Virus record (IMG/VR): IMGVR_UViG_3300025782_000009
DNA: 64,000 nucleotides
From: a virus
Lineage: Duplodnaviria; Heunggongvirae; Uroviricota; Caudoviricetes
Strand: one strand, 5' to 3'
Part shown: in pieces, positions 17,614-30,035 of the stretch
How positions within the stretch are numbered: the first letter of the stretch is position 1
Layout: every line of letters starts with the position of its first letter
Notes under the pieces: generated by a model
What the model saw: the letters and a program-made list of their open reading frames with translations, nothing else
Told to the model about the DNA's origin: nothing
Database searches by the model: none
Program-made: the position numbers and the translations under genes

Positions 17614-17642
17614 TTGACATTATTCAAAACAAGATATAACAT
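17614..17642 (+). promoter_or_regulatory. Sigma70-like promoter of the plus-strand recombination module (TTGACA-N17-TAACAT)
   Basis: Hexamers read directly. The first gene ATG is at 17675 with an aaaggaaacacaaATG Shine-Dalgarno. Confidence 0.45.
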
Positions 17643-17935: not shown

Positions 17936-18095
17936 CACACAACAAGCCGGCATGGATCTGAGAGATTGGTTTGCAGGGCAAGTATTACCTAAGTTGATTG
18001 GTACTGCACCTATAAATTTAGCCGCACAGTCAGCTTATCGTTGGGCAGATGAAATGATGAAAGCGAGATCAAATGAAGATAACAAACAAGTTTAA
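17904..18095 (+). CDS. Hypothetical protein (63 aa)
   Basis: ORF overlapping its neighbours. Confidence 0.4.
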   Translation: MQMKAFPNPNNTQQAGMDLRDWFAGQVLPKLIGTAPINLAAQSAYRWADEMMKARSNEDNKQV

Positions 18096-18969
18096 TCTGC
18101 CAGAGACAATCCTAAACGTACTGGCTCGCCCTACCTATTCCAAAGGCAAGGCTAATATTTCGGCTACTGAATTGATCAATTCACCCCGTATCGTGCAGCT
18201 CAAAAGGAAGCACTGGGACGAGGTGGAGGAGGATGCAAGCTCTATGGTCTGGTCACTGTTTGGCTCTGCCGTTCACAATATCCTGGAGCACGGCAAGCAG
18301 GACAATCATATCGTTGAGGAACGAGTGCACATTACCCACGAGGGATGGCATATCTCCGGCGCAGTAGATCTTCAAGAGGTCTATGAGGACGGAATTGTTA
18401 TCAATGACTACAAGACCACTACCGCCTGGGCTGTACAAAACGACAAGCCGGAATGGGAAGAGCAGCTCAACATATACGCCTGGCTAATCCAGAAAGCTAA
18501 GAATAAACCCGTCAAGGGCTTGCGTATCGTAGCCATAGTGCGCGATTGGAGTCAAAGAGATGCCGTGAATAGGGAAGGCTATCCGCAAGCGCCTATCGTG
18601 ATCCTAGACCAGCAGCTATGGCCTTTTGAGAAGGCTGAACTGTTCATTGAGGAAAGACTAAAGGCACACGGCGAAGCTTACTTTGAATCCGAGACAGACG
18701 GTCAGCTGCCAGAATGTTCACCAGACGATATGTGGGAGAAGCCAACAACCTATGCCGTGATCAAAGTCGGTGGCAAGAGAGCTAAGTCAGTCCATTCCAC
18801 AAAGAGGGACGCGGAAGCAGACTTGGATACAGCCGGCAAAGGATACGAGATCCAGGTCAGACCAGGAGAACGGACACGGTGCAGCAGCTACTGCCAGGTC
18901 AATCAATGGTGCAGCCAGTACCACAAATATTTACAAGAAAACGCAATCGTTGAAGAGGCAATTGAATGA
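18073..18969 (+). CDS. PD-(D/E)xK exonuclease, Cas4/RecB-like, with a C-terminal Cys cluster
   Basis: AVDLQEVYEDGIVINDYKTT carries the D..E.K catalytic core. The C-terminal cysteines are CSPDD ... CSSYCQVNQWC. It is paired with the downstream ERF annealing protein. Confidence 0.7.
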   Translation: MKITNKFNLPETILNVLARPTYSKGKANISATELINSPRIVQLKRKHWDEVEEDASSMVWSLFGSAVHNILEHGKQDNHIVEERVHITHEGWHISGAVDLQEVYEDGIVINDYKTTTAWAVQNDKPEWEEQLNIYAWLIQKAKNKPVKGLRIVAIVRDWSQRDAVNREGYPQAPIVILDQQLWPFEKAELFIEERLKAHGEAYFESETDGQLPECSPDDMWEKPTTYAVIKVGGKRAKSVHSTKRDAEADLDTAGKGYEIQVRPGERTRCSSYCQVNQWCSQYHKYLQENAIVEEAIE

Positions 18970-20162
18970 AAAAAGTAATTCACGAAGCCGATTCCAGACC
19001 CATAAAGATCTGGACGGATGACGTAGAAGAGGAGGCGCTGACCCAGCTTAAGAACCTGGCAAGGCTGCCCTTTATCAACCATCACGGCGTAGTCTGTATG
19101 CCTGATGTTCATGCGGGCAAAGGATCGACCGTGGGAACGGTTATAGCTACCGAGAAGGCGATTATTCCTGCTGCTGTAGGCGTTGACATTGGTTGCGGCA
19201 TGAACGCTGTTAGAACGTCTTTAAAGGCTTCTGACTTGCCTGAATCTTTAAAGGATGTCCGTACCCAGATTGAGCGTGATGTTCCGCTGGGCGCAGGTGG
19301 TCGGGTTCAAGCAGCAATTGATATTGATGATCGCATGAAGCGCTTGCCAAAAACATCATTTGATCTTTGCACAAGGCTAAATGAGATTATCGGTGACTAC
19401 TGGAAAAAGGCTGCCCCACAACTTGGGACGCTTGGATCAGGTAACCACTTCATTGAGCTTTGTATTGATGAGAACCAGGATGTATGGGTAATGCTTCATT
19501 CTGGATCTCGCGGAATAGGAAACATGATTGGCTCTTACTACATTGAAAAAGCCAAGAAAACAATGGAGAAGTTCTTTATCCATCTGCCTGATTCTGACCT
19601 AGCCTATTTGCCAGAGGATACCGATGACTTTAATGAATACATGGATGCCGTGAGTTGGGCGCAGAGCTATGCATTGGAGAACCGCAAGCTAATGATGGAG
19701 ATTGTTTTGGATGCGCTCAGAAGGCATATTTCAAAAGAATTCACGATTACCCAAGAGGCGATCAATTGCCACCATAACTATGTAGAGAAGGAGAATCACT
19801 TTGGAAGAAACCTCTGGGTTACTCGTAAAGGAGCTATTCGTGCGAGATCCGGAGACCTTGGAATTATTCCAGGTTCGATGGGTCAAAAATCATATATTGT
19901 CCGTGGCAAGGGTGAGTTGCAATCCTATTGTTCTTGTTCGCACGGGGCAGGACGCAGTATGTCCAGAGCTGAAGCTAAAAGGCGCTTCAGTATTGATGAC
20001 CTCATTAAACAAACCGAAGGAGTAGAGTGCCGTAAGGATGCGGCAGTGATAGATGAAATCCCAGCTAGTTATAAAAACATAGATCAGGTAATGGCTAACC
20101 AAACAGATCTAGTCGAAGTAGTTCACACCCTAAAACAAGTAATGTGCGTCAAAGGCGCTTAA
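18966..20162 (+). CDS. rtcB: RtcB-family RNA 3'-phosphate ligase
   Basis: Conserved metal-site motifs GSGNHF, HSGSRG, NCHHNY and CSHGAGR are present. The length (398 aa) matches bacterial RtcB. Confidence 0.9.
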   Translation: MKKVIHEADSRPIKIWTDDVEEEALTQLKNLARLPFINHHGVVCMPDVHAGKGSTVGTVIATEKAIIPAAVGVDIGCGMNAVRTSLKASDLPESLKDVRTQIERDVPLGAGGRVQAAIDIDDRMKRLPKTSFDLCTRLNEIIGDYWKKAAPQLGTLGSGNHFIELCIDENQDVWVMLHSGSRGIGNMIGSYYIEKAKKTMEKFFIHLPDSDLAYLPEDTDDFNEYMDAVSWAQSYALENRKLMMEIVLDALRRHISKEFTITQEAINCHHNYVEKENHFGRNLWVTRKGAIRARSGDLGIIPGSMGQKSYIVRGKGELQSYCSCSHGAGRSMSRAEAKRRFSIDDLIKQTEGVECRKDAAVIDEIPASYKNIDQVMANQTDLVEVVHTLKQVMCVKGA

Positions 20163-21085
20163 AGGAAACACAAATGAGTTTATTTTTTATTGCAATTTTT
20201 TTATTAGCCGCCCCAATTGGCATTGGCTATGGTTTGTATATTTTTTCTTTGGCAGACGTAAGGGCTAGGAACTCAATGAGAGACAAACAAGTTCCTGAAC
20301 CAACGTTTAAGCCAACACTGCCAGCCGTTACAGGATTAGTCCTAATGCTTCTGTACATTAGTCTTGAATCCTACGTTATTGTTCCTGCCGGTCATATCGG
20401 CATTCAGGTGACGTTTGGCACGGTCAACCAGGAAACACTGGGCGAAGGCTTGCACCTGGTCAATCCATTGTCTAGCGTACAGAACCTGGACGTTCGTTTG
20501 GTATCTGCCAAGCTTGCGGGATCGGCCGCTGGGACTAAAGATCTACAGCAAGTACACACCGATATCGTTGTGAACTACCGTATCTCTGGCGACCGAGCAG
20601 CCCATATCTACAAGGAGTTTGGTTTAGATCTTCAGGATAAAGTGGTCATGCCTTTTGTCAACGAATCGTTCAAAGCCATTACCGCGCACTACACCAGCGA
20701 GGAGTTGATTACTAAGCGGGACGAGGTATCCGCAGGAATTAAGCAGGAGCTGTCAGACAAGCTGGGAAAGTACAACATTATTGTGAGCGATATCTCTTTG
20801 GTGAATTTCGGTTTCTCTGCCGAATACCAAAAGGCTATCGAGGCAAAGGTAATAGCAACGCAAAGCAAACTCCAGGCGGAGCAAGACCTAGCCAGGATTG
20901 AGGTAGAGGCTAAGCAGACTATTGCCAAGGCAGAGGGTCATGCAAAGGCTATCCAGATTGAGACGGCTGCAATCAACTCACAGGGAGGACAGTCATACGT
21001 TCAACTCAAAGCCATTGAGAAATGGAACGGTACTTTGCCTAGCACCATTGCCGGGGGCGCGACACCGTTCGTGAATCTGAAATGA
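20144..21085 (+). CDS. SPFH/Band-7 (prohibitin, HflK/C-like) membrane protein. The likely start is the MSLFF... ATG at 20174
   Basis: N-terminal transmembrane segment FFIAIFLLAAPIGIGYGLYIF, then an SPFH domain (NYRISGDRAAHIYKEFG ... FGFSAEYQKAIEAKVIATQ ... coiled coil). Confidence 0.8.
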   Translation: MRQRRLKETQMSLFFIAIFLLAAPIGIGYGLYIFSLADVRARNSMRDKQVPEPTFKPTLPAVTGLVLMLLYISLESYVIVPAGHIGIQVTFGTVNQETLGEGLHLVNPLSSVQNLDVRLVSAKLAGSAAGTKDLQQVHTDIVVNYRISGDRAAHIYKEFGLDLQDKVVMPFVNESFKAITAHYTSEELITKRDEVSAGIKQELSDKLGKYNIIVSDISLVNFGFSAEYQKAIEAKVIATQSKLQAEQDLARIEVEAKQTIAKAEGHAKAIQIETAAINSQGGQSYVQLKAIEKWNGTLPSTIAGGATPFVNLK

Positions 21086-21174
21086 CAGCATTCTGGTGGG
21101 ATTTAGCACAAACAGTCATTCCAATAGTCGCATTGATATTGGCAATATACATTTTTTTAAGGAGCATAACGTGA
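21082..21174 (+). CDS. Tiny single-pass membrane peptide (30 aa), coupled to the SPFH gene
   Basis: Hand-translated as MTAFWWDLAQTVIPIVALILAIYIFLRSIT. Its ATG overlaps the SPFH stop (ATGA) and its stop overlaps the next GTG start (GTGA). Confidence 0.3.
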   Translation: MTAFWWDLAQTVIPIVALILAIYIFLRSIT

Positions 21175-21362
21175 ACGAAAAGAAAGCAAAAGCCATTCGC
21201 AAGCAGGTTGGTTTTCATCCCGCAGACCCAAGAGGATATAAGGGAGGTAACAATTCCAAAAAAGCAGAATCTACTGGAACCGTTGCAGCCACAGGATCGA
21301 GAGCAGTCTATAACCAGGCAAAGAAACTAGCGGAGCAAATCAATGAACGATACACAGCTTAG
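21171..21362 (+). CDS. Small basic protein (63 aa) with a KGG motif, GTG start. The track ORF 21096..21362 is probably over-extended
   Basis: AAGGAG lies 6 nt before the GTG at 21171. The product VNEKKAKAIRKQVGFHPADPRGYKGGNNSKK... carries a KGG motif. Confidence 0.4.
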   Translation: MNEKKAKAIRKQVGFHPADPRGYKGGNNSKKAESTGTVAATGSRAVYNQAKKLAEQINERYTA

Positions 21363-21499
21363 ATGCACCGCCATGCAGTTCACACTTGATATTGTCAAGA
21401 TGATGGACGAGGCAGAAGTAATTAACGTTAGCCCACACGACTTTGGGGTAATCGTTAAAGGAGCAGAGAAGATTTATAACTTTTTAAAGGGAGATACAA

Positions 21500-21802
21500 A
21501 TGAAAATTGATTGGAACGATATAGACAAAAACAGAATCTTAATAGATATGGATTTAAATGAATGGGATTTTGTTAAGGCAGGAATCAAAGAAAAAGCAAA
21601 TAGGTTGCTTAGTAATTTTGATACTTGCTTAGATTACAGGCTTGAACAATTAAAAGAAAAACCAACACTAAAAGATGTTGATCCTGAGATCGTTGAAATA
21701 TTTAATAAAGAATATGCTGAGTTTAAAAACAAATCAAAAAAAGCACCATACGGTTATAAATTAGATGGCACGCCTAAGAAAAGACCAGGAAGAAAAGCAT
21801 GA
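21500..21802 (+). CDS. Hypothetical protein (100 aa)
   Basis: ORF with an aaagggagatacaaATG Shine-Dalgarno. Confidence 0.5.
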   Translation: MKIDWNDIDKNRILIDMDLNEWDFVKAGIKEKANRLLSNFDTCLDYRLEQLKEKPTLKDVDPEIVEIFNKEYAEFKNKSKKAPYGYKLDGTPKKRPGRKA

Positions 21803-21993
21803 AGCTTGCGGTAGGTGAGGACGAGTGGTATCCAGTATTTACTTTATGCGAAGCAGATTCTTTTGTATGGAAATATCACTTGTCTGAGTTTGTCGAAATT
21901 ACAGAGGAAGAATATAAGGATTACAAAGAAACTATGAACAAATTTGAAGAATGGCAATCAAAAATTAATAACCTAGAAAGGGTTAACAAATGA
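21799..21993 (+). CDS. Hypothetical protein (64 aa)
   Basis: ORF with ATGA coupling. Confidence 0.45.
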   Translation: MKLAVGEDEWYPVFTLCEADSFVWKYHLSEFVEITEEEYKDYKETMNKFEEWQSKINNLERVNK

Positions 21994-22712
21994 CAGTATT
22001 TAAAAAACTACAGAAGGCGCGGTCAGAAATAGCCCATAAGCCTCTCAAGAAATCCGGCAAGAACAAGTTTGCAGGATACGAGTATTTTGAGCTGGGAGAC
22101 TTCATCCCTACTGCTCACGATATATTTGACCAACTCGGATTGTGCGGAGTATTCAATATCAGCCTTGAGACTGCTACGCTTTGCATTCACGACACCGAGA
22201 CGGGCGAAGTGGTTCAATTCTCCTCGCCGACCGTTCTAGCAGAGAATGCCAAGGGACAGGCCATCCAGTCTATGGGTAGTACTCACACCTATTTCCGCCG
22301 TTACCTTTGGTTGATGGCGCTGGAGCTAACTGAGCACGATACAGTCGATGCAGCAGAGCCAACAGAAAAGAAACCAGAACCTAAGCCAAAAGTTGACGAG
22401 CAAATTGTTAAGTCATCTGTAGATCCGAAAACTGGCGAGATCAAACCACCCGCCAATATCGAGGGCAAAGGCGGGGAGTGGAACATCAAGATCAATGCTA
22501 AATCTACTGCAACAGCAGAAGACTGGGCAAATATTGTCTATGACGCAGCCATAATCTGCCTAGATACGGCTAAGAGCTTAGATGATGTGATGACCATATT
22601 CAGGGTCAACCGTCCTATCTTTGATCGTCTACGCGCCGATTCTGAGCCAGCCTACTCTAAATTAATGAACGAGTTTAAAAAGTACAAGGAGTCTTTCAAT
22701 GCCATCCCCTAA
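21990..22712 (+). CDS. ERF-family single-strand annealing protein (recombinase)
   Basis: KNKFAGYEYFELGDFIPTAHDIF and GSTHTYFRRYLWLMALEL match the P22 Erf blocks (NSFGKYKYRSCEDIL / TSSYARKYCLNGLFGI). Confidence 0.75.
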   Translation: MTVFKKLQKARSEIAHKPLKKSGKNKFAGYEYFELGDFIPTAHDIFDQLGLCGVFNISLETATLCIHDTETGEVVQFSSPTVLAENAKGQAIQSMGSTHTYFRRYLWLMALELTEHDTVDAAEPTEKKPEPKPKVDEQIVKSSVDPKTGEIKPPANIEGKGGEWNIKINAKSTATAEDWANIVYDAAIICLDTAKSLDDVMTIFRVNRPIFDRLRADSEPAYSKLMNEFKKYKESFNAIP

Positions 22713-23674: not shown

Positions 23675-24049
23675 GTGCACTGGTATTTAAAGGCAAGATG
23701 TTCCGGTGCACCCATTGTGGTATCAAGTGGGCTTCTATCGAACCGGCAGAGGCTCACATCTGTGAAGAACGAAATGCAAAGCAAGAACAAGAAACCACCA
23801 ACCGCATCAGAGAAGAAACACATCCAGAGGGTAAAGGAGATGCCATGTATCATATGCGGCGCATCCTCACCGAGCGATTGCCACGAGATTAAACAGGGTC
23901 AGTGGTTTACTTCTATCCCGCTATGCCGGGATTGCCACATGGGCAGCCACAACGGCATACATGGTCGTAAAGCTATATGGAATGTAAAGCGCCTAGACGA
24001 ACTAGACGCATTAGCCCTCACTATCGAAAAGCTTATAACTGAGCCATAG
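23675..24049 (+). CDS. Small HNH-type endonuclease-like protein. The real start may be internal (about 23844); it overlaps the alternative ORF 23665..23892
   Basis: CIICGASSPSDCHEIKQGQWFTSIPLCRDCHMGSHNG has the pattern CxxCG ... DCHEI ... LCxxCH. Confidence 0.45.
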   Translation: MHWYLKARCSGAPIVVSSGLLSNRQRLTSVKNEMQSKNKKPPTASEKKHIQRVKEMPCIICGASSPSDCHEIKQGQWFTSIPLCRDCHMGSHNGIHGRKAIWNVKRLDELDALALTIEKLITEP

Positions 24050-27000
24050 CACGAAGCTTCTTAATATTTATATTCTTTAAGATCAGCTCTTCTTGTTTGT
24101 GTAGATTCTCAATCTGCTTTTCTTTCTTGTCCGGATCCATGTTCGGCTTGTTGCTGATAATGGCTATAGCGTTTTGGATGTTAGATAGATTCTTAGCTAT
24201 CTTATCTATATCGCTATGCATACCAACCCGCATCTGGTGCTCTTTTGACTTCATGTAATCAGCCGCCTCGCTTGGGGTGCGCTTCTTAATATCATTGAAC
24301 GTAGCAGATGCTTTGTCTACTTCATCCTTCAGAATATAGAAGTCACGTTTCAAGCCGGTCTGGTTTTCCTTGGATATAAATCCACTAGATCCTGGGACAG
24401 AGGCAAGCACATCATGCCAGCCAATCGTAGGTCTTTCTACATTTGGATCTGTGTGCAGGATTGGATTGGTCAGCATAAGCGTTAGACCGCCAACAGAACC
24501 AAACATACCGCGGATGATATGGTCAGCGTTGATAGGCGCAATCAACCCGGTCTTACCAAGTACCTTACCAAGCTCAGATGTTGAGTCATTGAACTGCCTG
24601 GATACATCCTCCTTCAGCATGAACGGATTGATCAGGTTGCGGTTCTGGAAAAAGTCATAGTTCAGTGCAACTTCAACTGCTGGCTTGATAGCCTGGGGAA
24701 CAGGAGTAGGAGCCATCAAAGATGAAGTCAAAGCTGATGCCATTGAATCTCTAAACTTACGCCCGTCTTCTGTAGCGTTGTTGGTCATCAATAAATACAG
24801 GTGCTCTGTAATGATCTTTGGAATGGTAAAGACATCGTTCCTGAGTGGAATGCTGAGACCGCCAGATCCAGGGATCATTAGCAGTCTATCCCGTACAGTC
24901 GTTGGCTTCTTTAGGTAGTCATCATCGTCACCGTTCATCATTGCGTACAGCAAAGATAAAGCCATAACAGATCCGGTAGTCATAGCAAGGGTTTGTAATC
25001 CTGCCTTCCTCTCGGTCGGGGATATGCCCTCGCCGGTAATGGTTTTGAATGCTACGTTTTGAACAGCAAGGTAGGCATTGAAGAACGGTATAACTTGGCT
25101 AACTACGCGCAGGGTGGTAGATGTACCCCTCCTACGCACGTTAAACACCTCAAAGGCTTTCTCAATAGCCTCACCGCGGGTCAGTCCTGCCGATACAGAT
25201 GCCTCGTATACAGCTTGTCTAACAGCGTTATCTGATGCCATAGAGATATGCTTGAGCATACCTTTGACCTTGCCCCATCCGCCTGGTGGTGGTTTAACGC
25301 CGGCATAAACCTCAGCATCTCTACGCGCCAGATCAGATGTAAAGTCTGTATATCCTACAGCTCTGTACTTCTTAAGCTCCTCATGGGTTGTACTGGTACG
25401 TCTAAGCGTCTTAACAAACTCCTTGGCTGCAAGCGCAGGGATTCTCAGGGCGTACTGTGGAGACAAGCCGGACGTAAAGATAGCGGAGAACGCATCTTGT
25501 GGTACTTGGCTGACCGCAAAGAGCGGGTTCATTACAACAGATTCTCTAAGGATGTTTGCAAACTTGGAGAAGAACTTAACAGTAGGAACAGATACCGCCT
25601 GGATACCGGCAAAGGCATCTACAAAGAGCGGATCCTTCATGTCGTAAAACTCTTCCTTACCATCTCTCCAAATGCGAACCACGTTAGCATTCTTAATGGG
25701 ATGAGGAATCTTCTTAGCTATACCAAGGCTTTCCAAGTCCTTGCTCATAGCTGTATCAATCATCGCCTTAGCCTGGGAGTTTCTGATGGAACGGTTATAT
25801 GAATACTCGATCCACTTCGCCATGTTGTCCACGATATTGGCAACTGGTCTTTCAGATCCGGTCATCTTGAACTCTCTGGCTTTAACCATCAAGCCGGATA
25901 GATAGTTCTTATCTCCGCCTTTAGCCTCTTCCTCCTCGAACTCGCGCTGGAACGGAACGTAGTCAATGTTTGACATCATCTGCTCTGCGTACTCTTCACT
26001 CCACAGACCAGACTCAACCAGAGCGTCCTTAGCGTTGTTTCTCATGCCCTGCCAGATATCCACAGTATCTTGCAGCTCAGGCATAGACTTAAAGAAATCA
26101 AGACCTGTAGCAATCTGCTCGTCCGATAGATGAATAAGCTTTGGCTTTTGCTTGGCAAGATTCTCAAACCTAGAGATAGCAGCCTTCACTTCTGCCCTCT
26201 GCGCCTTGGTATCAGGATCATTCCCGGTCAGGCTGTTCAGTAGTTCATTGAGAGCCTCGATCTCTTCAGGAGCGCTGGCAATAGATGCGTTGAAGTCTTT
26301 CAGCGACTGGGTACGTCTAGCCTCAAACGCCATGTGCGTAACAAGCTCTGCCTCCTGGTACGTCATGTTGTACTTATTGGCAAACTCACTAATTGATTTA
26401 ATAAGTTCTTTTAAGTTGTATCTATCCTTTACAACCTCCCACTTCTGAACATCATCATCGTATCCCAGCTTTCCATCAAGCAGTGCACCATTGGCAACAA
26501 TATCAGCACCAACAGCTTGGCTGGTACTGATATTAAGCCGGTTTCTAACCTTATCACTCATCTCGCCATCCGCTTGCATGATGCCGCGTTTGATGTTGTT
26601 ATTGAATGCAGAGTCACTGCTAAATATCCAGGTCTGTATCTTGTCAGAGAACTTGGTAGCAGCTTTTTTGGCATCTTCTATAGCCATGCCAGGATTGTCT
26701 ATAGCGTTATCCCAGTAGCTCTTAAGGTTCTCGTAGAAACTCTTTGGTTGCTCTTCTACTTCACGACCCATATCCCTTAATGAATCAAGTGCATCTCTGC
26801 CCGCGCCAGTGGCTTGACTTGGCTGGATTGGAGATTCCTCTGCGGTCATCTTTGGATTTGATTTCAGCCTTCCCGGAGGGGCTTGAGGAGTAGTTGGAAC
26901 ACCTAATGTGTACCCTTTCTTTTCCAGATCTTTAGCAATCTCTAGCGCTGGATTTTCAAACATATCAGTAGATATTCTGATTAATCTATCCAATGCTGTT

Positions 27001-30000
27001 TCGTATTCTGGAGATAAATTTAAAACCTTACGGACAAACTCCATCAATTTATCAAGAGCAGTCTTATTGCCAACTTTAATTCCAGCCAAATATTTCTGCA
27101 TTGCAGGATCGGTCAATCCTTGCGTAATAAACTCAGCATAGAAATCACCCTCTACACCTGTTGATTTTTTAAAGGCATAATTAATTGAGAATTCATCTCT
27201 AATATATTTGCCTTCTTTCTTGTCCTTTCTCCATTGTTTATGAACAAGCTTTCTTAAATCATCTAATTCTTTTACGAGAGGATTATCTGTGCCAAGGAAT
27301 TTAATTTCCGCCAAAGAAATAAGATGTATAAATTCATGCGCTAAGACTTCAAAAGTAGAACCCTTCTCGCCATTAATTTCCATTATGAAATTTATTTTCC
27401 CAAGACCTGAAGGACTAAATACTCTACCCAAAGATGAACGTTTTTTATTCATTACATATTTGGTAGAAAAAGTCATTGGTACGCCGCGGCGATCAAACTC
27501 TTGTACTTTGCGAAGAATGTGTTCAGCTATTCCTTTGTGATATGAGTCATGCGCTATATCAACTAAAATCTGCGCTGCCTCAACAATATTTTTACCATTT
27601 AACCTTTTAAGCAATTCTGCTTTGCTCAACTGAGGCTTTTGGAAAAAAGTATCTTTTGTTGGCGGCTCATCTGGAGGAGTAAATAAATCTTTCTCTCCTT
27701 CAAATGCCTTTTTAAACACCTCATCCAGCGAGCGTTTGGGAACTTCCCCGAACATATCTGTGTCTGTTCTGTTGTGCTCTTCAAGCGCGGCATTAGCTAA
27801 GTTATTTAATCCTTCGGTAATCTTCTTACCCGACCTGCCAGAGTCTGCAAACATTTGAAGAATTCTTTGGGTATAAGGATTAGTCCCTATATCCATTTGC
27901 TTAGCCATATCTTCAAGCGGTATATTTCTACGCCTTGCATTAACCGCTGCTTCTGCGGCTTGGGTTACATAAGGACGGATATCGTACTCTCCAGCGCCAT
28001 CAAGCTGCGCCATCTTAGGAGCAACGGTTCCAAGTGAATTTAATACAAGTCTTGACTCAGCATCCCTGGTTGGCCCATACAGATTAATTAACTGCTCATT
28101 GCCATATGCCTTCCAAAACACAGCATTCATCAAACGATCTTCTGCTTTCTTTGAAGGCTGACCAAACAAGTCCTTTAAATCAGGATGCTCTGATACCGGC
28201 ATCGCATTAACAAAGTCCCGCAATGAATCAATATGCGGATCACCGTTATCATAAAATTTCAAAGAATTAATATCTATTCGGTTGGCATCTTGTTTGGCTG
28301 AATCAATAGCTGACAAACCAGAGATACCAGATACGTTTGATATATCACCAATGTTAGGCGTAATAAAAGACTTAGGCATCACCCGCACCAACACGGGCTG
28401 CTTCATGTCCGCAATAGTCTTGGGATCAATGCCGTGGGCTGCATCGTTAACCAACTCTTCCTTGTACTTGCCAGCTGTTCCGCGCTGATAAGCCTCTTGT
28501 ATACCTGCTACACGACCATTACCCGCAACCGGGCGAATAGCAGAGACAGATAAATCCTGGTACTCAGCATTCTTTGTGCCATCATGGGAATGAGATGGTA
28601 GCAATTCATGTGCATCAACAACTGCATACCTAACTGGAATCTTTGTTCCGTCAGATGCTGTGGTCATCTCATAGTTTCCAAGCTGGTTTTCGTTTAGCTT
28701 CTCATCGGTCATAACCACTGGAGCGCCAGAACCAAAACTGCGAGATATGCTTAAATCGTTATATCTTGGATTAGCTGCAACACCTTGCATTTGCTGAATA
28801 GATGCATCTGTAGATCTGTCTCTATTTTGAAAGACCGTACTGGATGCGTCTGGCAACCCTTGGTGGTAATTCTCAAAGTGCTGAGACAAGTCTGGATTTG
28901 CACCTGGCGCAACATTTCCCGGTGGAGTAGTAGGAGGATTGACCGGAGGCGTGGCAGGTGGAGTCTCAGGAGCAGCTGGAGGAGCGGGCGGAGTAGTACC
29001 CGGCTTTTGTGCGGCTGCTGGCTTCTGAAGCAAACCCATACCACCGGCAGTACCAATAGCACCAATACCCGCCTGGGCAGCAGTGCGTCCAAGATTCTCT
29101 GTTAACTCTGCATTAGGATCTACCTGTTGCTGAGCTACGTTCTGAGCAAGCTGTCCACCAACTTCCTCAATCTCTTCACTGGGTAGCTCACCAAGGGCGA
29201 GACCTGCTGCATTACGCAACCTACCTGCTTTACCTGCTTTACCTGCCAATGCCTCAGCAAACCTGTGTCCGCCTGGTAGATTCTGAGCGCCAAGGGATAT
29301 AGCTGCACCTGCAACACCAGTAGCCCTAGCGTACTTCAATGCTCTTTCTTTAGCCTCGTCCTCTGGTACGCCATCAGCAATCATCTTGTCATAGGTTGCT
29401 TTGTATACCTGTGCACCTACGTCAGAGCCTTGCTGTAAAGCACCAGTACCGATAGCAGCCCGTGCGCCAGACTTAACGGCAGCAGCTTGAGCAGCTTCAG
29501 CAGCAGCCTTCTCGGCAGCAGTACCTACGGCTTTCCTAGCGGCAGCTCTAGATGCGGCAACAGCAGGAGATAGTTCAGGAGCAGCAATAGCAGCAATAAT
29601 AGCCGGCAATTGTTCAGGTAACTGCTGGGCAATAAAGTTAAGACCAAGACCAAATGGGTCTTTGATTGTCTCTAATGCTTCACGACCAAGGGCGCTGAGC
29701 TGTCCACTCTTTTCCGCTTCTTTGACCTTCTCTTCTTTGAGTTGTTCCCTAGCTTTTAAACCAGGAGACTTCATCTCTTCGCCGTACTGTTGCAGCTTAT
29801 TACCAATAGCCATTACGCCGGTATCGGAGAAATCTCCAGTAGCCAGACCATACATCTGCGGTACAAACTTAGCTGCACCACCAACGCCAGATACTAATCC
29901 AGCACCAATGTCCGTTGCAGCCTGACCAAACGTCCTGCTTGTATCAGGAGCTTTGGGTGGCGGCGGAGCGGGTAGATCAGAAATGTCTACTGGTCTAGGC

Positions 30001-30035
30001 TTGGTAGGATCCGGTAAATCGCTAATATCAATCAT
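24033..30035 (-). CDS. Giant virion-associated or ejection protein (2000 aa) with a zincin-like HExxH motif, Ala-rich and Pro-rich N-terminal segments
   Basis: A continuous 6-kb ORF at the end of the late operon. FEVLAHEFIHLISLAE contains HExxH. Features include an N-terminal DISDLP repeat, an Ala/Gly-rich helix region and a PPAPPAAPETPPATPPVNPPTTPP linker. Confidence 0.8.
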   Translation of the reverse strand: MIDISDLPDPTKPRPVDISDLPAPPPPKAPDTSRTFGQAATDIGAGLVSGVGGAAKFVPQMYGLATGDFSDTGVMAIGNKLQQYGEEMKSPGLKAREQLKEEKVKEAEKSGQLSALGREALETIKDPFGLGLNFIAQQLPEQLPAIIAAIAAPELSPAVAASRAAARKAVGTAAEKAAAEAAQAAAVKSGARAAIGTGALQQGSDVGAQVYKATYDKMIADGVPEDEAKERALKYARATGVAGAAISLGAQNLPGGHRFAEALAGKAGKAGRLRNAAGLALGELPSEEIEEVGGQLAQNVAQQQVDPNAELTENLGRTAAQAGIGAIGTAGGMGLLQKPAAAQKPGTTPPAPPAAPETPPATPPVNPPTTPPGNVAPGANPDLSQHFENYHQGLPDASSTVFQNRDRSTDASIQQMQGVAANPRYNDLSISRSFGSGAPVVMTDEKLNENQLGNYEMTTASDGTKIPVRYAVVDAHELLPSHSHDGTKNAEYQDLSVSAIRPVAGNGRVAGIQEAYQRGTAGKYKEELVNDAAHGIDPKTIADMKQPVLVRVMPKSFITPNIGDISNVSGISGLSAIDSAKQDANRIDINSLKFYDNGDPHIDSLRDFVNAMPVSEHPDLKDLFGQPSKKAEDRLMNAVFWKAYGNEQLINLYGPTRDAESRLVLNSLGTVAPKMAQLDGAGEYDIRPYVTQAAEAAVNARRRNIPLEDMAKQMDIGTNPYTQRILQMFADSGRSGKKITEGLNNLANAALEEHNRTDTDMFGEVPKRSLDEVFKKAFEGEKDLFTPPDEPPTKDTFFQKPQLSKAELLKRLNGKNIVEAAQILVDIAHDSYHKGIAEHILRKVQEFDRRGVPMTFSTKYVMNKKRSSLGRVFSPSGLGKINFIMEINGEKGSTFEVLAHEFIHLISLAEIKFLGTDNPLVKELDDLRKLVHKQWRKDKKEGKYIRDEFSINYAFKKSTGVEGDFYAEFITQGLTDPAMQKYLAGIKVGNKTALDKLMEFVRKVLNLSPEYETALDRLIRISTDMFENPALEIAKDLEKKGYTLGVPTTPQAPPGRLKSNPKMTAEESPIQPSQATGAGRDALDSLRDMGREVEEQPKSFYENLKSYWDNAIDNPGMAIEDAKKAATKFSDKIQTWIFSSDSAFNNNIKRGIMQADGEMSDKVRNRLNISTSQAVGADIVANGALLDGKLGYDDDVQKWEVVKDRYNLKELIKSISEFANKYNMTYQEAELVTHMAFEARRTQSLKDFNASIASAPEEIEALNELLNSLTGNDPDTKAQRAEVKAAISRFENLAKQKPKLIHLSDEQIATGLDFFKSMPELQDTVDIWQGMRNNAKDALVESGLWSEEYAEQMMSNIDYVPFQREFEEEEAKGGDKNYLSGLMVKAREFKMTGSERPVANIVDNMAKWIEYSYNRSIRNSQAKAMIDTAMSKDLESLGIAKKIPHPIKNANVVRIWRDGKEEFYDMKDPLFVDAFAGIQAVSVPTVKFFSKFANILRESVVMNPLFAVSQVPQDAFSAIFTSGLSPQYALRIPALAAKEFVKTLRRTSTTHEELKKYRAVGYTDFTSDLARRDAEVYAGVKPPPGGWGKVKGMLKHISMASDNAVRQAVYEASVSAGLTRGEAIEKAFEVFNVRRRGTSTTLRVVSQVIPFFNAYLAVQNVAFKTITGEGISPTERKAGLQTLAMTTGSVMALSLLYAMMNGDDDDYLKKPTTVRDRLLMIPGSGGLSIPLRNDVFTIPKIITEHLYLLMTNNATEDGRKFRDSMASALTSSLMAPTPVPQAIKPAVEVALNYDFFQNRNLINPFMLKEDVSRQFNDSTSELGKVLGKTGLIAPINADHIIRGMFGSVGGLTLMLTNPILHTDPNVERPTIGWHDVLASVPGSSGFISKENQTGLKRDFYILKDEVDKASATFNDIKKRTPSEAADYMKSKEHQMRVGMHSDIDKIAKNLSNIQNAIAIISNKPNMDPDKKEKQIENLHKQEELILKNINIKKLRAMAQL

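Follow-up and report, generated by a model that had tools for sequence, protein, structure and literature searches.

An unannotated 30-codon membrane-peptide gene beside a prohibitin-like SPFH gene in a variable cassette slot of a phage operon

The stretch of DNA analysed here, 64,000 nucleotides (nt) of IMG/VR record IMGVR_UViG_3300025782_000009 and referred to below as the window, is a phage genome in which a PHROG profile search identifies a small terminase subunit, a primase, a methyltransferase, a helicase and virion structural and tail-fibre proteins. Within an operon on the + strand, running from about 17.9 to 24.05 kb, three genes overlap end to end: a gene for an SPFH/Band_7 prohibitin-like membrane protein of 303 amino acids (aa; 20174..21085), an unannotated gene for a 30-aa peptide predicted to span the membrane once (MTAFWWDLAQTVIPIVALILAIYIFLRSIT; 21082..21174) and a gene for a 63-aa basic protein with an isoelectric point (pI) of 10.1 (21171..21362). 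The ATG of the 30-codon open reading frame (ORF), called the micro-ORF below, overlaps the TGA of the SPFH gene as ATGA, and its own TGA overlaps the GTG of the 63-aa gene as GTGA. An earlier reading made from the letters alone (the sequence-only reading) had picked out the same three overlapping ORFs, all of which are indeed present, and had proposed that they form a functional trio.

The product of the micro-ORF is a single hydrophobic helix, acidic towards the N-terminus and carrying an Arg at the C-terminal end, and has no Pfam match. Its peak hydropathy is 2.48 on the Kyte-Doolittle scale averaged over 19 residues; among the window's ORFs with a length of 25-40 aa, 355 in all, only two attain this value, one being the micro-ORF. 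For comparison with relatives, contigs encoding homologues of the 63-aa protein were fetched, and extra copies of the micro-ORF were taken from a DNA motif scan of metagenomes of the Joint Genome Institute (JGI), where the scan gave 10 hits; there were none in IMG/VR and none in genomes. In 27 of the sampled contigs an uncalled gap of exactly 85 nt lies ahead of the gene for the 63-aa homologue. This gap holds the micro-ORF in 26 of them and in the ERZ1426851 contig its presence was inferred from the gap. Three further loci (L083, L135 and L137) also hold it, either hidden beneath a call in a different frame or known from the scan. Gene callers reported it in none of the 30 sampled contigs that carry it.

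Nine distinct DNA variants were recovered, every one of 30 codons and with the ATGA overlap at its start and an (A/G)TGA overlap at its end. The 41 sites that vary among them are distributed 11/6/24 over codon positions 1/2/3 (binomial P = 8e-4), and codons 2-25 taken alone behave similarly (8/6/21, P = 1e-3). Across seven variants the ratio of nonsynonymous to synonymous polymorphism (pN/pS) is 0.18 in the frame of the micro-ORF, whereas the two remaining frames give 1.57 and 1.23, and the amino-acid replacements are conservative (D/E, V/I/L/A/F). Taken together, the conservation of the 30 codons, the excess of third-position variation, the pN/pS and the hydropathy identify the micro-ORF as a real gene for a small membrane protein. 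Judged by these sequence features it is a genuine conserved gene under purifying selection, its product a predicted single-span membrane peptide whose translation is plausible, and the sequence-only reading was right to single it out. In most relatives a strong Shine-Dalgarno (SD) sequence (GAGGTGAT or AGGAGG) precedes the ATG; the copy in the window has only a weak one. As a gene that is conserved, as far as sequence can tell, yet unannotated, it is a modest but real discovery, adding to the gene set known for a group of freshwater phages a well-supported membrane-peptide gene of 30 codons that had gone uncalled and that standard gene callers miss systematically.

In its length of about 30 residues, its one hydrophobic helix and its few flanking charges the peptide resembles the bacterial class that includes MgtR, MgtS, AcrZ, KdpF and CydX, and also the type I toxins TisB, Hok and Fst. 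Annotation often misses small single-span membrane proteins of these kinds. It differs from them in that it shares no sequence similarity with them and in that its gene sits inside a phage early operon. The size and hydropathy of the peptide are compatible with a type I toxin, the gene lying within an operon; of the features of type I toxin-antitoxin systems, no promoter-like site was found on the - strand at 21082-21174, no Rfam hit and no promoter or antisense RNA of its own. The peptide would be expected to insert with its acidic N-terminus out and its C-terminal Arg in, and it would seem most likely to act alone on some target in the membrane, in the manner of small membrane proteins of bacteria.

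Delimited mechanically, the SPFH ORF runs from a GTG at 20144 to 21085 (20144-21085, 313 aa) and overlaps the TAA stop of the RtcB gene (20160-20162). The ATG at 20174 has AAGGA 7 nt upstream and gives the 303-aa product, which is the form called by gene callers in relatives, and this ATG rather than the GTG at 20144 is probably the true start. The protein matches Pfam Band_7 (PF01145) with an E-value of 2.4e-32 and 112.9 bits (cut-off 23.6) over profile positions 2-175 of 176, and PHROG_200 with an E-value of 2.2e-51, so the SPFH assignment of the sequence-only reading holds up in a profile search. It falls short of HflK and HflC: the protein scores 37.9 bits against a cut-off of 159.4 for TIGR01933 and 20.5 against 134.4 for TIGR01932, the HflK and HflC equivalogs of NCBIfam. 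Prohibitins are nearer, being closest over the SPFH and coiled-coil region together, which places the protein in the prohibitin subfamily, and the nearest solved structures in a search of the PDB are prohibitin and prohibitin-2 (8e-29, residues 61-283). Like the prohibitin-family SPFH proteins (PF01145, and the phage proteins of PHROG_200 labelled 'lipoprotein' or prohibitin) it combines a complete Band_7 domain with a membrane anchor at the N-terminus; it differs from them in being encoded by a single gene, in place of a PHB1/PHB2 or HflK/HflC pair, and no paired K and C genes were found in the operon.

The N-terminal membrane helix that had been predicted for the SPFH protein is borne out by two hydrophobic stretches (residues ~3-25 and ~51-70; 19-residue Kyte-Doolittle hydropathy >1.6), which directly precede the domain starting at residue 69. 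The loop between them has a net positive charge, which suggests a topology with the loop in the cytoplasm and the SPFH domain outside the membrane. The nearest cellular homologues are from Polynucleobacter (68% identity) and Rhodoferax (62%), each a stand-alone gene. With chromosomal genes of freshwater Burkholderiales as its closest counterparts, the SPFH gene, which encodes a membrane scaffold of the prohibitin family, was probably acquired from a host as an accessory gene. What is known of that family suggests that the N-terminal hydrophobic segments would anchor the protein in the inner membrane and that it would form ring or cage oligomers, which during infection may arrange membrane proteins or hold FtsH-type proteases in check. 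SPFH genes are annotated in 1123 phage records, and the gene is thus an ordinary, already catalogued sort of phage accessory gene; a literature search found no dedicated study on the function of a phage SPFH protein.

The third gene, a GTG-initiated ORF for a basic protein as had been stated, is real and has homologues in seven close clusters. Its SD sequence, AGGAG at 21160..21164 on the + strand, lies 6 nt before the GTG, within codons 27-28 of the micro-ORF, and is retained in all nine variants; the start site itself is conserved among relatives, as GTG or ATG. The label 'KGG-motif' applies to the window copy, where YKGGNN recalls the KGG-repeat stress proteins (Pfam KGG). It does not extend to the homologues, which have KDS, SEN, KQG, KDG or VDG at this place, nor does the 63-aa protein give a hit to the Pfam KGG repeat. 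What characterises the family instead is the signature MNxKKAKALRK...G.R..YQ.AKK, in full the consensus MNxKKAKALRKxxGFHPxDxRxY...GT...G.R..YQ.AKK. The family, examined as members P0008-P0066 at loci L084-L128, comprises proteins of 50-75 aa in 60 representative clusters at E<1e-3. No Pfam entry matches it, and weak PHROG hits, to four different families, were obtained for 4 of the 56 members scanned (E 8e-4 to 9e-3). An AlphaFold2 model of the 63-aa protein, based on the family alignment, has a predicted local distance difference test score (pLDDT) of 84.7 and shows a helix (residues 3-13), a β-hairpin (22-25/38-41) and a second helix (43-62). Searches with this model against the PDB and BFVD returned insignificant hits or uncharacterised homologues only, and tblastn searches of phages with the 63-aa protein and with a sister protein of 67 aa gave no match. 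On the model, the protein would be a soluble, basic helix/β-hairpin/helix member of a broad, uncharacterised and so far unnamed family of small phage proteins, which is defined here with a confident predicted fold. A distant phage contig (L101, 4995-7390) has a member of this family, of 58 aa, together with a PDDEXK-like gene and an SPFH-like gene of 31% identity inside 2.5 kb, with no micro-ORF among them.

The three genes lie in a stretch from the exonuclease gene to the 55-aa gene that is hypervariable among relatives (window 18073-21990; L060-L083, L129-L138), with RtcB, SPFH and ORFs of 34-115 aa coming and going. Its conserved left edge is a PD-(D/E)XK exonuclease gene (18073..18969, + strand; Pfam PDDEXK_1 3.2e-09, PHROG exonuclease 3.7e-49), which is found in nearly all relatives. 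The 55-aa gene (21343..21510, + strand) heads a conserved right-hand block, with genes of 55, 100 and 64 aa and then, as its anchor, the gene for an Erf-like single-strand annealing protein (21990..22712, + strand; PHROG_155 3.9e-24, Pfam ERF in relatives). RtcB, encoding an RNA ligase (18966..20162, + strand; Pfam RtcB 2e-130), is an optional cassette like SPFH. The trio does stand beside RtcB in the window, as had been remarked, but this adjacency varies: RtcB is present in the window, L066/L130 and L005 and missing from L068-L074 and L060-L065, and where it is missing in L068-L071 the exonuclease gene adjoins SPFH directly.

The SPFH gene abuts the micro-ORF only in the window, L135 and L083, which have the order (RtcB)-SPFH-micro-ORF-63 aa. 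Elsewhere in L066-L078 one to four unrelated ORFs of 34-115 aa are inserted between the two. A 94-aa ORF stands there in L066/L130 and L067 (RtcB-SPFH-94 aa-micro-ORF-63 aa, RtcB being seen in L066/L130 only as L067 is cut at its 5' end), a 115-aa ORF in L068-L071, an ORF of 90 or 91 aa in L074, L075, L077, L131 and L132, and three or four small ORFs in L073, L136 and L072, where the 63-aa homologue has 64 aa. The micro-ORF follows the exonuclease gene without any SPFH gene in L082 and the ERZ1426815 contig, each with a 64-aa homologue downstream (the micro-ORF of the ERZ1426815 contig being inferred from its 85-nt gap), and in L137 it is followed by the 55-aa gene, with neither SPFH nor the 63-aa gene. 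Conversely, L060-L065 and similar contigs (24 contigs carrying P0004 were read) have the exonuclease, 63-aa and 55-aa genes in succession, without SPFH or micro-ORF. In the closest SPFH homologues in IMG/VR both small genes are absent from the fetched 3-kb flanks: the gene in L004 (87% identical) is followed by a 115-aa ORF and ERF, that in L005 (78% identical) is preceded by RtcB and followed by other genes. SPFH without the micro-ORF is seen also in L001, L140 and L141, and phage SPFH genes at 60-70% identity have varied downstream neighbours.

The seams of the slot fall exactly at the ATGA/GTGA stop-start overlaps. L137 and L060 share the same exonuclease end (GAAGAGGTAnTTnnATGA), after which the next gene is the micro-ORF in L137 and the 63-aa gene in L060. 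The 55-aa and 63-aa genes, which overlap by 20 nt in the window (21343-21362), share the opening (G/A)TGAACGA, and in L137 the 63-aa gene is missing exactly between two such repeats. Overlaps of this kind occur at nearly every junction of the operon, as ATGA at 18966, 21082, 21799, 21990 and 23665, as GTGA at 21171 and as longer overlaps elsewhere, and those joining SPFH, micro-ORF and 63-aa gene are therefore not special. They may give translational coupling, as throughout the operon; judged by their sequence context they appear as a product of compact operon packing and carry no sign of a common function. Where phage operons are compact, then, an overlap of stop and start is no ground for assuming functional coupling, the same ATGA/GTGA junctions being the seams at which cassettes (RtcB, SPFH and small ORFs) swap.

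In a separate observation, ORFs of 54, 90, 91, 94 and 110 aa located upstream of the micro-ORF or of the gene for the 67-aa sister protein all end in ...KSAEVIK* (L066 3890-3916; L072-L081; L093, L128, L131, L132, L136 and L138). The DNA of this ending, GAGGTGATTAAATGA, provides the following gene with a perfect SD and an ATGA overlap, and looks like a common recombination or coupling junction.

As the three genes are present or absent in every combination, they are best read as neighbours and not as a working trio. The explanation that we favour, with a probability of roughly 0.7, is that they are separate cassettes that abut by chance in this phage, inside a hypervariable slot within an early operon for recombination, where genes would be gained and lost precisely at the ATGA/GTGA junctions. 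The sequence-only reading had also called for a survey of SPFH-microprotein pairs in phages, and here no enrichment emerges: a transmembrane (TM)-like ORF directly follows SPFH in 10/41 cases and other genes in 41/235 (Fisher p = 0.28; of 43 IMG/VR loci left after dereplication, 41 had a downstream ORF that could be scored). Several points weigh against chance neighbours. This test rested on crude ORF calling in the 43 loci. In this phage lineage SPFH is followed, on every contig that bears it, by the micro-ORF and the 63-aa gene further on, so the proteins may interact facultatively, and the micro-ORF and 63-aa gene occur together in all but two architectures and could be a functional pair. 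The SPFH protein and the peptide are both predicted membrane proteins. Lacking a good SD of its own, the micro-ORF of the window would rely for translation on termination-reinitiation after SPFH, and so depend on coupling to that gene.

The most durable alternative, though an unlikely one, pairs the peptide, as membrane anchor, with the 63-aa basic protein, as soluble partner, in a module of two genes independent of SPFH. In eight of the nine variants the micro-ORF adjoins the 63-aa gene with a GTGA/ATGA overlap, whatever lies upstream. Comparable arrangements exist for sister basic proteins: the 67-aa protein is preceded, with a 1-nt overlap, by a lipoprotein of 91-96 aa (MKYLLILLILAGCS...) in >20 IMG/VR contigs of freshwater phage, and in L112 a 38-aa TM peptide precedes a sister with an ATGA overlap. 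These neighbours give a weak lead towards a pairing of membrane and basic proteins. Many other members of the basic family, indeed most, have non-membrane neighbours upstream, however, and each of the two genes is found without the other, the micro-ORF alone in L137 and the 63-aa gene alone in L060-L065. The cases of co-occurrence all come from one closely related lineage, so that synteny alone explains them.

An extended version of this idea, which we consider distinctly improbable, makes the peptide and the basic protein the halves of an undescribed phage early-gene module, with SPFH as a third, optional member to corral the complex. If it were true, a small membrane-targeted protein would recruit a member of the MNxKKAKALRK family to the inner membrane, the membrane-targeted half being the TM micro-peptide here and the 38-aa TM peptide or the 91-96-aa lipoprotein in sister phages.

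The trio of the sequence-only reading, in which SPFH, peptide and basic protein cooperate, the peptide serving an SPFH cage as partner or client in the manner of NfeD/YbbJ or MgtR so as to modulate a membrane protease or abortive infection, now seems very unlikely. SPFH proteins are known modulators of FtsH, the SPFH protein and the peptide would share the membrane, and in the window, L135 and L083 the three genes do adjoin one another through ATGA/GTGA overlaps. Against this stand the existence of every presence/absence combination, the extra genes between SPFH and micro-ORF in most relatives, the lack of enrichment of TM ORFs after phage SPFH genes and the PADLOC defence models, none of which match the SPFH, peptide or 63-aa proteins. 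The NfeD/YbbJ/YuaF partners of the SPFH1/2/5 operons are, like the peptide, membrane proteins encoded beside an SPFH gene. They are, however, 140-150 aa long, carry some three hydrophobic stretches as well as an OB-fold at the C-terminus, and accompany SPFH1, SPFH2 and SPFH5 only (PMC2636767). The peptide has none of these features: with 30 aa, one helix and no Pfam hit it cannot be an NfeD, nor is it steadily linked to SPFH across relatives.

Hardly tenable is the proposal that the 30-codon ORF is a mere translated spacer or leader that hands ribosomes on, or the start of an N-terminally extended basic protein of 88 aa. The micro-ORF does contain the SD of the 63-aa gene, no variant has a stop in the extended frame and one gene caller gave an 86-aa product (P0007); the third-position substitutions, conservative hydrophobic replacements, fixed length and strong SD of its own in relatives speak against it, as does the pN/pS of 0.18 in the micro-ORF frame versus 1.23 in the extended frame. 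The 88-aa ORF was rejected, its extended frame showing no selection. Least credible of all is a programmed -1 frameshift fusing the TM helix to the basic protein at a T_TTT_TTA heptamer (21153..21159, + strand), which is in the right register and beyond which the -1 frame runs uninterrupted into the 63-aa gene: the heptamer, retained in just 3/9 variants, is probably due to chance, the -1 frame upstream of the GTG is not under selection (pN/pS 1.23) and L137 has a different downstream gene, so the fusion too was rejected.

The genes preferred here as independent cassettes belong to an operon with the order 63-aa ORF (from 17904, + strand), exonuclease, RtcB, SPFH, 30-codon ORF, 63-aa basic protein, genes of 55, 100 and 64 aa, ERF and more small genes. 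A candidate sigma-70-like promoter, TTGACA-17-TAACAT (17614..17642, + strand), identified by consensus match only, precedes it, and no terminator-like site was found on the + strand of the operon ahead of 24131. A megablast search of the region against INPHARED phages gave no match and an Rfam scan of it matched no family. The G+C content is ~0.32 over the 55-, 100- and 64-aa genes (21400-22000), compared with 0.43-0.51 in the remaining operon. On the - strand, window positions 24033-30035 hold an ORF of 2000 aa, which has counterparts of 1787-2046 aa in related contigs, some with Pfam LPD38.

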